DNA of 64,000 nt. It comes from Geosiphon pyriformis uo1. Its lineage: Eukaryota; Fungi; Glomeromycota. Where the stretch lies: positions 666,534 through 730,533 of the forward strand of contig JAAOMT010000503.1 of the NCBI GenBank assembly GCA_016748015.1, written 5' to 3'. The notes beneath the pieces were generated by a model, which saw only the letters and a program-made list of their open reading frames with translations, did not search any database and was not told where the DNA came from. Both the position numbers and the translations under genes were made by a program. This document shows positions 36,857 to 46,710 of this stretch, one piece after another. Positions within the stretch are counted from its first letter, which is position 1. Each line of letters starts with the position of its first letter.

Positions 36857-37842
36857 TGTTACCGGAGGTTTTTGGTCTCTTTTCTTGAATGTTGTTGATG
36901 CCTGTTTGCTGTGAATTTACGTTTTCTGGATGTGGTTGAACCTCCAGTAACTGAATTTATCCTCAAATTATCTCTTATAATTTGAACTGCTGGACTTATA
37001 AGTAAAATGGCCAATTCTATGCCAGTTACTTTGTATAGTTACATTGTAGTAAATGTCAACTCTTTTCTAAGAATTGCTTGTCTGGAAGCTCACTAAAATG
37101 TGTAGTTACTTTGCTGTGAAAGTCAACTCTTCTACAGAAATCTCATCTGTAGACTACCCTAATGATTGTAATAAGAAAAGAAAAGAAAAATAAAAGAAAT
37201 GTAAAAGAAAAAGTAAAACTGATGATTTATGGAAGTCGTTTCGGATCCAGGCCTGGAAGTGCTTTAACAGTCTACTGAAATTGATAGCTAATCAATTTCA
37301 AACTGTTAGTAAGAATTAATTAATTCCAAGAGAAATAATTAAGAATTTGGTTTTTCGAATTTATTTAATATTTATTTTGTTTTTGTGTGTAAAGGCTGAT
37401 TCTAATTATTAAATCTGAAGTAAGATACATTTCCTCAAAAAAAGAAGCTCTTCTTTTATACAACTTGTTGTAACACTATTCTATAAACTTGAACTTTGCT
37501 ATTTTTTATAATTTCACTGAACTAAAGATACATTTCGGTGAACTACAAGTTATTTCTGTGAACTATTAGATATTTCGGCAAACTATCAATTATTTCGGCG
37601 AATTTCTTACAAATTTCGGCAACTTTTTGAATGTTACATAGTTCAGGGTATTGCATGATTGATCATCACAATTAGGTTACATTTGTGTTATGTACAAATT
37701 GGGTTATTAATTAAATGATAATTTTGGATATTTTGCTAATGTAATAAGTAATAATTTGGAAATGATAATATATGCTAATTAATGATAAGATTTATAAGAG
37801 TAATTTCATGCTAAACAATATCTCTAATTTTGTCTGGTAATA
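36857..37842 (-). repeat. Element C 3' LTR
   Basis: Direct repeat of 45725-46710 with TGTTAC/GTAATA ends. Confidence 0.95.
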
Positions 37843-38530
37843 TAACCTCCTCCTCAAGACTGAGCTCCATCAAAGTCCAAGTACTGTCTGTAATTTTCAG
37901 ATAATAATCCAAAATTATTGAAGAAATTTGGTCTGAAAATTGTTGAAATTTCAGTTCTGTAAGCTTTCCAATGTATTGAATCTTCAAAGGCTGTAAAATT
38001 GGGTCTTGTAGGACGTTTTTATAGGTGTAGAATAGGTCATAAAGTCTAAGAACAGCTCTTAGTTTATAATGACTGTTTGTAGACCCAGCTGTTGTCTTGA
38101 ATTCATTGTAAAGTTGTTTCCGAATAGCTTCTTTTGCAAGGTTTGCTGTTGTAAGCTCTAGTTTTTGCTTATGAAGTGTTTTTTCAATATAAAAATATCT
38201 ATATATTGGAGGGTATTTGCCATTTTCTTCATTAAGATACAGTTGAAGTTTTTGTTGAATAATAGCATTTGGTGAAATACTAATAGGGGCGAGCAATAAG
38301 TTTTCTCATAAAACAAGCTTCAAAAGTTCTGGTAAATAAATTCCAGAATAACTTCTTGTGTTCTTCTTATATGGATGATATTTTTGTGCATTTGGAGCTA
38401 AATTTGCAACTACTTCTGTTTAGGTATAATTAATGTGGTTTCGAGTAACAGTAATGGATAATTTGAGTATTGTTTTTAAAGCTAACATTAGTTTTTGGGA
38501 TAATTGTTGAATGTTTTGAGGAATAGACAT
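37811..38530 (-). pseudogene. Element C ORF3, unknown function (~239 codons, two premature stops), reading through the PPT into the 3' LTR
   Basis: ATG at 38530 in frame with the 161-aa ORF; similar by eye to ORF3 of element E. Confidence 0.75.
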
Positions 38531-38652
38531 TATAAGAGATTTGAAAATAAAAGAAAATTATTTTTGGTGTATGGGTTTTTATGTTATTTTTGTTTTGTTT
38601 TTGTAAGATTGTTTCTAAATTATAATGATATAACTATAATAATAAATTTAAA

Positions 38653-43000: not shown

Positions 43001-45679
43001 TTCTTCAGGTGAAATACAGGCTCCCATTGACAATAGTTTCTTGTGGCAGTCCTTACATTTAAGAGGAATGTAGGTGCATTGTTTCCTTAGTTCAGGCTTT
43101 GAGTAAAGGATATTCTATCCAGGGGTTTCGGGATTAGAGTGTGGGATAAAATGTTCTTGTTCAGTTTCATTGGCCCAATTGAACATTGATCCAAGAGCCA
43201 TAAATGTTTTAATTATTGGTTTTTTTTCTTCTGGTTCAAATTCAAAAACCGGGGCTTTTTCAGAGTGTTTGTTGAATGTACTACAAGTGGCAGGTACTCG
43301 GACATGTTGTCTTTGGTAAGAGATTTGTAGTTCTTGGGTTTCTCAGTCTAATTTTGCATTGGCTTTTTGGAGCCAATTGTTTCTGACAAGGGCTTGATAC
43401 TGGGGAGCATCTATTACAAGAACTTTGACTGAAATAGTGATTCCATCAAGAGTAAACGGAAAATTGTCAATTTCTCCTACTAGAGTCTTTTTCATGCCAT
43501 CGGCAGTGATGATTACTGTCTGAGCTGGTCAGTTAATATTTCTTTTTAACTGTTGCATCAACTGGTAGGTAATGATGCTTCCGGCAGATCCACTGTCTAG
43601 AATCAAGCGAATTGACTTTCCTTCTACTTCAGCTTCTGTGTACATTGCAGTAATGGCTTTTTGCTCATTAGTCACTGCATTGCTAAGCAAGAATGGTAAT
43701 TCATTTGCTTCAAATTTGAAAGAAAATATATCTGAAAGGTTGGCATTTTTAGCAATTCTGGCTGGTGGGATTATAGTAGGAGTATAGAAAGGGTTTTGTT
43801 GTTGTGCTGCAGCTCTATCTTCCAAGAATGCAGTATGGTAAAAATTCTGTTCTTTAGGTATTGTTAAATAACTGGGTTGAATGTGATAGTGGTTGGGTCT
43901 TGATTAAGTGGAATTTCGGGAAACCAATTGGTTGTTCGAACTGATTCTATTGTTGTTTACTTGGTATCGGTTTTGTGGACTAAATTGGTTTTGTGGAGTC
44001 AATCTTCAAGCAAGTACTTAGTAATGTTGTGTGGATGGTTGTTGGTATTGCTGTTAGATCAGCTGTGAGGCAGGCTGATAATAGTTACTTTGGTATTGGG
44101 GTCTTGGTGGATAGTAAGCTGGTAGTAGTTGATAATAAGATTGCTGTAGTGGAGGATAACATTGATTACTCCTATTTTGTTGGTCTTGTTGTAGCTTTCT
44201 GCAATCTTTTTTCCAGTGGCCAGAGATTCCATAATAATGGCAATTCTGAGACTGGTTATTAGAAAGTGGTGCAAAGTTATTTTGATTTTATCTTTGGAGT
44301 GGTTGATATCTTTGGGGTTGCTGTTGTTGTTGATTGGTAAAATAGTTTTCAATCTTTTTTGTCAGTTGGTCAATTTTCTTCTCAGCTATTGAGCTGGTTT
44401 TTCCAATTGCCAAATTTACAAGTTTTGTGCAATTGGCTTCTTTCATGGCCATTTCATATTTTTTTGCATGCTGTATAGTAGAGTTTAAATCTTCTGGAGC
44501 ATGTGGGTAAATCTTTTTAATTAGTTTATCTTTTAGACCAGCGATAAATTGATCCAAGATTTGAGCATCAGAATAATAATCATTAGTTTCAAGTTGGCGA
44601 ATTTGTCTAAGAAGTTTGTTGAATTTCCCAATATAAGTCATGACAGATTTGGAGGGTTTTTGTTTGATATTGTGAAAATAATTTCAAAGTGTGATTGAGG
44701 TGTTGTTATTGGTGAATTGTTCTAAAAAGGCAGTTTTGAAAGCTGTCCAGTCATTAAAAGGGGTGGTCAAGTTTTTGAACCATTTGTCTGCTGTTCCTTT
44801 GAGAAAGTAGGGAATTGTTCTTAACATTCTAGTAGCATTCCATCCATTTGCATCTCCAGCTTTAATAACTTGGTTGAGCCATTCTTGGGAACTGGTCTCA
44901 ATGTCTTCTCCATTAAATTCAGGGATTTTTGCGATGTATGCTGTCATTTTGTCTTCTTCGTTTTCACTGTCTATTGATTTTTTTTCAGATATTTCAGAGT
45001 TGTTTTTTTTGTTTACTGCTGTTTTAGAGTGTTCACTTCAATTTTCAGCTAGAAAGTCAAGGAGATTGGAACTAGTTTGAAGGGGTTCTTGTTGTCTGAT
45101 GGGACTTCTGGGTGATGTAAAATCTTCTAGTCTTGCAAATCAATTTAAGGGTGAATTAGATGTTTGTGTTTGTGCAAGTGAAGCTGAAAAAGGTGTGATA
45201 GTAAGTGGAAGTTTTGAACTGGTTCCTTGTTCAGGTGTTTGTAAATGTTTGGCAGTTGTTTTTGGTAGTATTGGAGTATTTGGGGTGGTTTTTGAGTATT
45301 GCTTCAATTTTTGTTTGCTTTTGTTGCTTGTTTCTGTCTCTGATTCAAAATCAATGGAGTATTAAGACTGCACTGGATATGTTTCTTCACAGTACTTGAT
45401 AATGTTAAAGTTAAGTTTTAGAAAGTAAGTGGCAATTGTTTTACTGTTAAGATCTTCAGTTCCCAACTGTGAATAGTGTATTAAATTATTGTAAAAGTTG
45501 TTTCTAACTTCTGAGATATTGTAATTTCCAAAAAGATAATTGTTGATGCGGTTTTCAATGTATTGGTATACTGATTTTTTGACAACTTCAATTCCGTCTG
45601 GAATGTTGAATCTTTGCTTGCAGTGGGTGTAAATTAATTGGTAATACTCTAGAGTTGTTGCATCTGGTGTGGTCACCAC
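40083..45679 (-). pseudogene. Element C polyprotein pseudogene: N-extension-Gag-PR-Cys-rich-dUTPase-RT-RNase H
   Basis: MTAYIAKIPEFNG gag; LILDSGSAGS; KAHKIDAGYDL...GGIIDAGYTG...[22 protein letters not shown]...YASRTL...ELET; ends SRIRQD* at 40083. Confidence 0.9.
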
Positions 45680-45724
45680 TTTGAAGTTGTTTTTGCTGTG
45701 TTGTTTCCATGGGAGAGCACCAAA

Positions 45725-46710
45725 TGTTACCAGAGGTTTTTGGTCTCTTTTTTTGAATGTTGTTGATGCCTGTTTGCTGTGAATTTACGTTTTTTGGATG
45801 TGGTTGAACCTCCAGTAACTGAATTTATCCTCAAATTATCTTCTATAATTTGAACTGCTGGGCTTATAAGTGAAATGGCCAATTCCGTGCCAGTTACTTT
45901 GTATAGTTACATTGTAGTAAACATTAACTCTTTCCCAGGAATTGCTTGTCTGGAAGCTCACTAAAATGTGTAGTTACTTTGCTGTGAAAGTTAATTCTTC
46001 TACAGAAATCTCATCTGTAGGCTACCCTAATGATTGTAATAAGAAAAGAAAAGAAAAATAAAAAAAATGTAAAAGAAAAAGTAAAACTGATGATTTATGG
46101 AAGTTGTTTCAGATCCAGGCCTAGAAGTGCTTTAACAGTCTACTGAAATTGGTAGCTAATCAATTTCAAACTGTTAGTAGGAATTGATTAATTCCAAGGG
46201 AAATAATTAAGAATTTGGTTTTTCGAATTTATTTGATATTTATTTTGTTTTTGTATATAAAGGCTAATTCTAATTATTAAATCTGAAGTAAGATATATTT
46301 CCTCGAAAAGAGAAGCTCTTCTTTTATACAACTTGTTGTAACACTATTCTATGAACTTGAACTTTGCTATTTTCTATAATTTTGCTGAACTAAAAATACA
46401 TTTTGGTGAACTACAAGTTATTTCTGTGAACTATTAGATATTTCGGCAAACTATCAATTATTTTGGCAAATTTCTTACAAATTTTGGCAACTTTTTGAAT
46501 GTTACATAGTTCAGGGTATTGCATAATTGATTATCACAATTAGGTTACATTTGTGTTATGTACAAATTAGGTTATTAATTAAATGATAATTTCAGATATT
46601 TTGCTAATGTAATAAGTAATAATTTGAAAACAATAATATATGTTAATTAATGATAAGATTTATAAGGGTAATTTCATGCTAAACAATATCTCTAATTTTG
46701 TCTGGTAATA
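45725..46710 (-). repeat. Element C 5' LTR
   Basis: Direct repeat of 36857-37842, followed on the minus strand by TT-TGGTGCTC PBS. Confidence 0.95.

Follow-up and report, generated by a model that had tools for sequence, protein, structure and literature searches.

An LTR retrotransposon lineage of Glomeromycota and soil metagenomes with an integrase encoded apart from Pol

Must the integrase of a long terminal repeat (LTR) retrotransposon be made as part of Pol? In the textbook account it reaches the particle within Gag-Pol, and the accessible texts of two papers describe it as a Pol domain (PMC12440569, PMC3248453). The question is raised by a 64,000-nucleotide stretch of the Geosiphon pyriformis uo1 genome (contig JAAOMT010000503.1, positions 666,534 to 730,533; hereafter the window), which carries an element, C, whose Pol open reading frame (ORF) stops after RNase H and is followed by a stand-alone integrase and then by a third ORF, ORF3. 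The initial annotation, made from the letters and their translations, had proposed that C and its sister copies B, D and E represent a three-ORF design with a dUTPase in Gag-Pol. C had been named as the complete example, and both LTRs, the primer-binding site, the polypurine tract and a 4-bp target duplication are indeed present, arranged as follows:

36857-46710 (-), element C, a decayed Ty3/Gypsy-type LTR retrotransposon
45725-46710 (-), 5' LTR, 986 bp, starting with TA in place of TG and ending with CA
45705-45722 (-), primer-binding site, TGG two bases past the LTR, 3' limit approximate
40083-45679 (-), ORF1, Gag-Pol, ending at RNase H, with stops and frameshifts; predicted start at a conserved GUG (45679)
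45362-45679 (-), Gag N-terminal extension, which aligns in B, C, D and E
44420-44935 (-), Gag capsid domain (tblastn; Pfam on E)
44201-44242 (-), CCHC zinc knuckle, decayed, intact in relatives
43298-43654 (-), aspartic protease (tblastn; Pfam on E)
42478-43063 (-), Cys-rich block with several CxxC and no Pfam family
41914-42312 (-), dUTPase (tblastn; Pfam on E)
40728-41392 (-), reverse transcriptase (tblastn; Pfam on E)
40089-40535 (-), RNase H (tblastn; Pfam on E)
40083-40085 (-), Pol stop codon TAG, family-wide
40036-40082 (-), spacer, 47 nt, A/C-rich, predicted unstructured
38653-40035 (-), ORF2, stand-alone integrase with its own ATG, H2C2, DDE core and GPY/F
37811-38530 (-), ORF3, predicted helical, without a transmembrane segment
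37846-37855 (-), polypurine tract
36857-37842 (-), 3' LTR, from self-comparison
36853-36856 (+), target-site duplication CTAT, 4 bp, one transition from the right copy CCAT at 46711-46714

The sister copies are nested with it:

28432-46862 (+), element B, with C in its integrase tail (stop near 46818), cut by D; junction 35552-35588
46863-54420 (+), element D, cut by E inside its integrase; junction 53946-54018
54421-64000 (-), element E, Gag-Pol in a single frame to 57717, the window ending inside its 5' LTR
56339-57706 (-), integrase of E
55551-56258 (-), ORF3 of E

The proposed common order of N-extension, Gag, protease, Cys-rich block, dUTPase, reverse transcriptase and RNase H was recovered by tblastn in 4/4 copies, with the N-extension aligned in all four. 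Pfam recognises Retrotrans_gag, aspartyl protease, dUTPase, RVT_1 and RT_RNaseH in the single 1927-codon frame of E, and H2C2 and rve in the separate ORF that follows. The copies belong to three subfamilies with dissimilar LTRs, as had been claimed, the B/D, C and E types giving no cross-match in self-blastn (E 1e-10, at least 150 nt). The stop past RNase H nevertheless occupies a homologous position in 4/4 copies (C, TAG 40085-40083; E, TAA 57719-57717; D, TAA 53946-53948; B, TAA 35552-35554), and the integrase begins 47, 10, 67 and 31 nt further on in C, E, D and B, respectively, at an ATG in C (40035), E (57706) and D (54016) and at an ATA in B (35586).

Whether this stop is a design or a scar has to be asked in a window where every copy is dead and transitions are the mode of decay. 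In C itself Pol is broken by several frameshifts and the integrase contains 5 internal stops. Its LTRs (986 bp, 94.7% identical) differ by 52 transitions, 0 transversions and 0 gaps, so that 52/52 differences are of one kind, and its CpG observed/expected ratio is 0.24 against 0.78-0.87 in two host ORFs; since TAA and TAG arise from CAA and CAG, the stops and ORF3 could be C-to-T decay of an ordinary gag-pol-integrase element. Against this explanation stand the relatives that we collected from metagenomes (the best 80 of 581 loci, retrieved by a query that had itself been assembled from stand-alone integrases), several of which have intact Gag-Pol ORFs of 1600-1850 aa and retain the stop. A continuous reverse transcriptase–RNase H–integrase frame, the outcome against which the initial annotation had set its proposal, was looked for in these loci, and a fusion of RNase H with integrase occurs in 0/48 of those with an upstream RNase H. 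Their spacers fall in all frames (17/11/9 by length modulo 3 in the 37 loci with spacers of -40 to 250 nt), and in three loci stop and start overlap (-14, -8 and -8 nt). Among 393 contigs of run X1 that cover the junction of C no variant at or above 2% is listed at the stop, while two spacer positions differ in more than 85% of the depth; X1 is possibly the window's own source, so these contigs speak for other copies in the same genome and provide no independent support. No RNA run is listed among the sequencing runs that contain the sequence. The start of the integrase is also conserved, the alignment beginning at the first position of the query in 101/120 listed homologues and Met standing first in 119/120; because that search spanned only proteins of 250-797 aa, longer ones were searched separately. 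With ORF3 also under coding constraint, as described below, decay is scarcely credible as the source of this arrangement. On this comparative evidence the split is not decay; it is ancestral and lineage-wide, and the architecture with a separate integrase is almost certainly a real design.

Phylogenies place the split elements together. In a FastTree built from reverse transcriptase plus RNase H (235 rows, 14/249 rows, long multi-element gene models, having been removed beforehand) a 69-row branch with support 95 unites 30/30 split loci and 28/29 integrase-free Pol proteins, together with all 4 window copies, 5 gene models and 2 fused proteins. In an IQ-TREE of 61 hand-picked rows, 25/25 split rows fall on one branch against 36 fused ones (Shimodaira–Hasegawa-like approximate likelihood ratio test 96), and the integrase tree has a 69-row branch (99) made up of 68/68 split-group rows plus the fused P0128. 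The nearest outgroups in the reverse transcriptase trees are ordinary fused Pol proteins. A split that arose once accounts most simply for these trees, which hold search hits only.

Several observations weigh against so clean a picture. The locus sample favours a split clade, because its query was built from stand-alone integrases and only the best 80 of 581 loci were taken. P0128, a metagenome protein, is a truly continuous reverse transcriptase–RNase H–integrase ORF that keeps the Met at the junction, and in the integrase tree it nests within the split clade. In the IQ-TREE it stands next outside the split branch together with P0133 and P0141, which FastTree puts within the clade. P0132 has a 140-aa linker. 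Five further NCBI models that look 'fused' (P0125, P0126, P0127, P0264 and P0268) belong to Rhizophagus clarus and Cetraspora and lack the conserved RNase H end; as candidates for real fusions they were set aside, being read, from the protein models alone, as gene-model joins.

Two other features of Pol vary among the relatives. Many carry an acidic tail of 200-400 aa past RNase H (L064, L059, L076, L035, L010; P0267-P0296), at whose end lies a conserved Cys/His motif that matches nothing in Pfam, and several tail-bearers also have the hairpin described next. L017, L029, L051 and L058 encode Gag and Pol in separate frames, whereas most other loci have a single Gag-Pol frame.

How, then, could the integrase be translated? 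Its AUG looks like a true start, with a purine at -3 in 61/66 loci and G at +4 in 61/66. ATG is depleted in the 60 nt upstream, with 3 observed against 31.8 expected in the 27 loci with a hairpin and 7 against 24.5 in 29 others, the expectation coming from mononucleotide shuffles and the sequences being related rather than independent. The spacers of these 66 loci form three classes, namely overlapping or abutting stop and start (10 loci), hairpin (27) and other (29). The hairpin is a conserved element of about 40 nt found once per locus, above 55 bits, in 28/80 loci (for example L059:4459-4506, L035:5188-5241 and L071:3417-3475), and it ends 3-15 nt upstream of the AUG in 26/27 measured loci, at exactly 3 nt in 12. 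Its basal stem is followed by a 12-nt bulge and then by an upper stem, in which one A is bulged. Of its 12 pairs 8 change on both sides; 94.8% of paired cells are complementary against 78.0% after shuffling (0/500 shuffles as high) and 21-47% in slid controls, and RNAalifold on its own found 11 pairs, 7 of them compensatory. In the 8/28 hairpin loci scanned against Rfam none matched at the hairpin (E up to 1), with one hit elsewhere. The spacers of L001, L005, L007, L009, L014, L015 and L017 form a second class, in which short words, AACGGA and TTTTGA among them, are over-represented.

We lean slightly towards reinitiation or internal entry of ribosomes on the genomic RNA as the way in which the integrase is translated. 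A single LTR-to-LTR RNA would serve both Gag-Pol and integrase, and ribosomes finishing Gag-Pol, or recruited by the spacer, would restart at the integrase AUG; the clade appears to use three solutions for this, an overlapping or abutting stop and start, the hairpin, and other spacers. The free integrase would then enter the particle by binding Gag-Pol or RNA, with ORF3 as a candidate accessory factor for its packaging. Foamy viruses, in which Pol is expressed separately and packaged in an RNA-dependent manner, offer an analogy. The pentamer TAATG stands at the junction in L045 and L050, and as UAAUG it drives termination-reinitiation in Cryphonectria hypovirus 1, also with two ORFs on one fungal RNA, according to the accessible text of PMC2699510; the hypovirus differs in being an RNA virus, and in most of the present elements the two ORFs are set apart by a spacer and do not overlap. 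Some of the evidence pulls the other way. Spacers of 286-1026 nt occur among the loci and are long for reinitiation, and 25/28 hairpin matches built the hairpin model, whose structure was derived from the same sequences. The window copies have spacers of 10-67 nt without the hairpin, its best match in the window (E 0.3) lying outside the spacers, so that it says nothing direct about element C. Finally an AG lies within 13 nt of the start in 4/4 window spacers, with a branch-point-like word upstream.

This last observation is what would be expected if the integrase were made from a spliced RNA with its 3' splice site just upstream of the AUG, as for retroviral env, and the hairpin offers a similar hint in its invariant bulged A followed by CAG in 23/25 rows. 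Across the relatives the signal dissolves, since a branch point with AG occurs in 3/27, 1/10 and 3/29 loci against 3.9, 1.6 and 5.1 expected, 11/29 'other' loci lack any AG within 40 nt, and L031 and L051 carry a compensatory GG in place of AG, all of which makes splicing improbable. Separate subgenomic RNAs for integrase and ORF3, arising from an internal promoter or by RNA processing, are a better competitor, although we still consider them unlikely; the hairpin would then be a 5' end mark, a cleavage site or a packaging signal. They would accommodate spacers of up to 1026 nt, and the scanning-type start context and the depletion of upstream ATGs suit a short capped leader equally well, whereas stop and start overlap or abut in 10/66 loci, a usual sign of translational coupling, and the U-G pairs, seen on the sense strand, speak for an RNA structure and not for a DNA promoter palindrome. 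That Pol and integrase are after all one protein, joined by programmed frameshifting or stop read-through, agrees with the spacers of B, D and E, all 1 modulo 3, and with one natural fusion, P0128. The frame of the spacer is not conserved, however, being 2 modulo 3 in C and spread over all frames in the relatives (17/11/9, as above), and an in-frame stop precedes the Met by a few codons in most of them, so frameshifting or read-through is very improbable. Taken whole, a large polycistronic clade in which the integrase was uncoupled from Pol once, is translated from genomic RNA with the help of a compact, roughly 40-nt initiation or reinitiation element of a new class, is packaged in trans and directed to CpG-centred targets, and is accompanied by a helical ORF3 accessory protein of unmatched fold, is a picture that we offer tentatively and that may well fail in one part or another.

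The second part of the proposed design is ORF3. In C its 239 codons run from 38530 to 37811, crossing the polypurine tract and stopping inside the 3' LTR, and contain 2 stops where the other frames have 13 and 15. In E its 235 codons run from 56258 to 55551, again with 2 stops, where each of the other frames has 18. Homology between the two is weak (26% over 115 aa, E 9e-5). That the region survives only in C and E was correctly noted, the B and D copies being truncated: ORF3 is gone from them because D cuts B 44 nt past the integrase stop and E cuts D inside the integrase. Among the relatives an ORF of at least 90 aa follows the integrase in 31/46 loci with room for one. The 34 ORFs found at this position comprise 28 of one family, 1 (L003) that is window-like, matching the two window ORF3s at E 6e-15 and 3e-10, and 5 unrelated ones. 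The main family, which has 571 clusters at 50% identity, changes most at third positions in 8/8 pairs, a pattern that shows ORF3, on substitution evidence, to be a protein-coding family under constraint. Two points tell against ORF3 as a fixed trait of the lineage: it is missing from 15/46 loci with room, and the window ORF3s match the main family at only E 2e-4 (E) and 0.014 (C), or 2e-4 and 0.9 in a second search, a weak apparent tie.

The product does not look like an envelope protein. The ORFs are 131-239 aa long with a highest 19-residue hydropathy of 1.46 (27/27), and we found no hydrophobic anchor, no Pfam env match and only all-helical models. The main family is modelled as an all-helical domain with a predicted local distance difference test score (pLDDT) of 95, and the L003 protein at pLDDT 75, without a structural match. 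Foldseek gave no match in PDB or BFVD at E 0.001 and the best VIA-align results were Z 5.2 (root-mean-square deviation (rmsd) 4.6, 88 aligned) and Z 5.8 (rmsd 3.0, 64 aligned); for such predicted models the absence of a clear match does not make the fold new. Sequence scans of Pfam, NCBIfam and PDB returned no consistent family. A likeness to closterovirus-type coat protein scored 0.93 in the atlas with only 156 shared features, and none appeared in the Pfam and fold searches. In three gene models from Gigaspora and Cetraspora (P0429, P0533 and P0471) the ORF3 domain is doubled or carries long tails.

The proposal of a distinct, dUTPase-containing three-ORF design is supported, with refinements, as the separate integrase is found clade-wide, ORF3 in 31/46 loci and the dUTPase and Cys-rich block in 0/80. 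The defining trait is the separate integrase, with ORF3 frequent and the dUTPase local. Among named sequences, those nearest to the N-extension, Cys-rich block and dUTPase are gene models of Geosiphon pyriformis (42-84% identity). Matches to the Cys-rich block came solely from six proteins that carry the Geosiphon name, with no Pfam family and no lead from the atlas (best score 0.82). Judged from these matches, dUTPase and Cys-rich block are confined to a Geosiphon-like sublineage, in which the dUTPase would be a late gain that limits uracil in the cDNA. Other Gypsy elements of fungi, namely PosPlaTy3-5 of Postia and Tmt1 of Tuber, also carry a dUTPase between protease and reverse transcriptase, in the accessible texts of PMC2864245 and PMC6431247; these differ in being discussed there among chromodomain-bearing elements, and those texts do not mention a separate integrase. 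The same text of PMC2864245 considers the dUTPase an independent gain each time, which its lack in the 80 relatives fits. At the ORF3 position of one relative (L026:1945-2889) lies a NUDIX hydrolase ORF, a possible functional parallel to the window dUTPase.

The insertion sites of the nested copies hint at how the integrase chooses its targets. The four bases at the insertion points, located at 27382-27385, 28428-28431, 36853-36856/46711-46714, 46859-46862 and 54417-54420, are CTAT/CCAT for C, CCGG for E, ACAC for D, ATGT for B and ATGT for B', a partial copy described below. A central CG, TG or CA is present in at least one copy at 5/5 sites, against a background of 0.156. The B site reads ATGT in B and ACAT at the homologous positions in D, which suggests an ancestral ACGT; the target of C could equally be an ancestral CCAT. 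These five sites suggest a preference for 4-bp targets centred on CpG.

Where does such an element belong? Direct LTRs, primer-binding site, polypurine tract, 4-bp target duplication, Gag capsid with CCHC knuckle, protease–reverse transcriptase–RNase H–integrase order and a GPY/F integrase are shared with Ty3/Gypsy (Metaviridae), and Ty3 is the best solved-structure match to the reverse transcriptase and RNase H of an intact relative (311 bits, the next entry scoring 222). The window type differs in its integrase outside Pol, in an extra ORF that is not env and in having no chromodomain, none being found by Pfam on the integrase of E and PF00385 in 0/120 listed homologues. Because the integrase is not the C-terminal part of Pol, we class C as a Ty3/Gypsy variant and not as an ordinary member. 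To our knowledge Caulimoviridae have neither LTRs nor integrase, and C has both. Troyka, another unusual LTR retrotransposon group, has CG..CG ends and 3-bp target duplications, neither of which C shows, and a single Gag-Pol with integrase, no GPY/F and an occurrence in animals only, in the accessible text of PMC12440569. Closer in one respect is Ginger1, a DNA transposon that is flanked by terminal inverted repeats and lacks reverse transcriptase, since the YPYY-type Gypsy-like integrases described in the accessible text of PMC2836005 are also free-standing and share the N-terminal motif, H2C2, DDE and GPY/F. In our homologues the motif columns, positioned from that description and not from its alignment, are Y/F 95%, P 78%, Y/F 87% and Y/F 97%, with GP[YF] in 116/120. 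Ginger1 targets CCGG or CCGT (PMC2836005, same text), and the window targets are likewise compatible with a central CpG. The window integrase differs in lying inside an LTR element with gag and reverse transcriptase, between RNase H and LTR, and in having no protease domain at its C terminus. In the integrase tree the only two Ginger-like rows, assigned to that type by their domain content, lie beyond the split clade and have long branches.

The window itself is AT-rich, with long host-like ORFs in its first 22 kb and the LTR-element nest from about 27.4 kb to its end. The host-like ORFs presumably encode a JmjC protein (494-1783, +), a leucine-rich-repeat protein (3550-7467, +), a sterol acyltransferase (14515-16384, +) and a tuberin/TSC2-like protein (16646-21859, -), as we take it from their translations. 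Between host genes and nest lie 5 kb at GC 0.11 (22000-27000). The nest opens with B' (LTR, primer-binding site and a short stub from 27386), within which B sits from 28432; C was inserted into the tail of the B integrase, which resumes at 46712, D starts at 46863, 44 nt past the B integrase stop, and E was inserted at 54421 inside the D integrase. The LTR at 46863 was considered as the 3' LTR of B, which would leave B without ORF3, and rejected in favour of the 5' LTR of D because of its 78% identity, 69 transversions, 75 gap columns and lack of a polypurine tract. Both LTRs of C (46710, 37842) and the 5' LTR of D (46863) start with TA, not TG; that of B starts with TG. All five 5' ends (B', B, C, D and E) keep AAAGTGG past the primer-binding site, in frame with the start of the Gag N-extension homology, and have no ATG in common; ORF1 may start at the GUG. 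A minisatellite with a 10-bp period lies at 55200-55500, between ORF3 and 3' LTR of E. LTR elements make up 41% of the Geosiphon pyriformis genome in the accessible text of PMC11952901.

The clade occurs in Glomeromycota and soil metagenomes; a viral contig set yielded 3 weak integrase loci and no match to the hairpin pattern. The suggestion that the architecture is undescribed has held so far, as our literature search found no LTR retrotransposon with a separate integrase ORF, although repeat libraries of arbuscular mycorrhizal fungi, Repbase, GyDB, REXdb and subscription papers could hold one. The elements thus form a widespread and apparently undescribed soil-fungal group, in which the pre-integrase hairpin is new here and the dUTPase between protease and reverse transcriptase was already known. 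A clade that lacks the link between integrase and Pol, yet reaches high copy number, must translate, dose and package its integrase in some other way, and the covarying 40-nt hairpin is a candidate for a small eukaryotic initiation element. For annotation, the split would explain the many lone integrase ORFs and apparently intron-bridged Pol-integrase gene models found in Glomeromycota databases.

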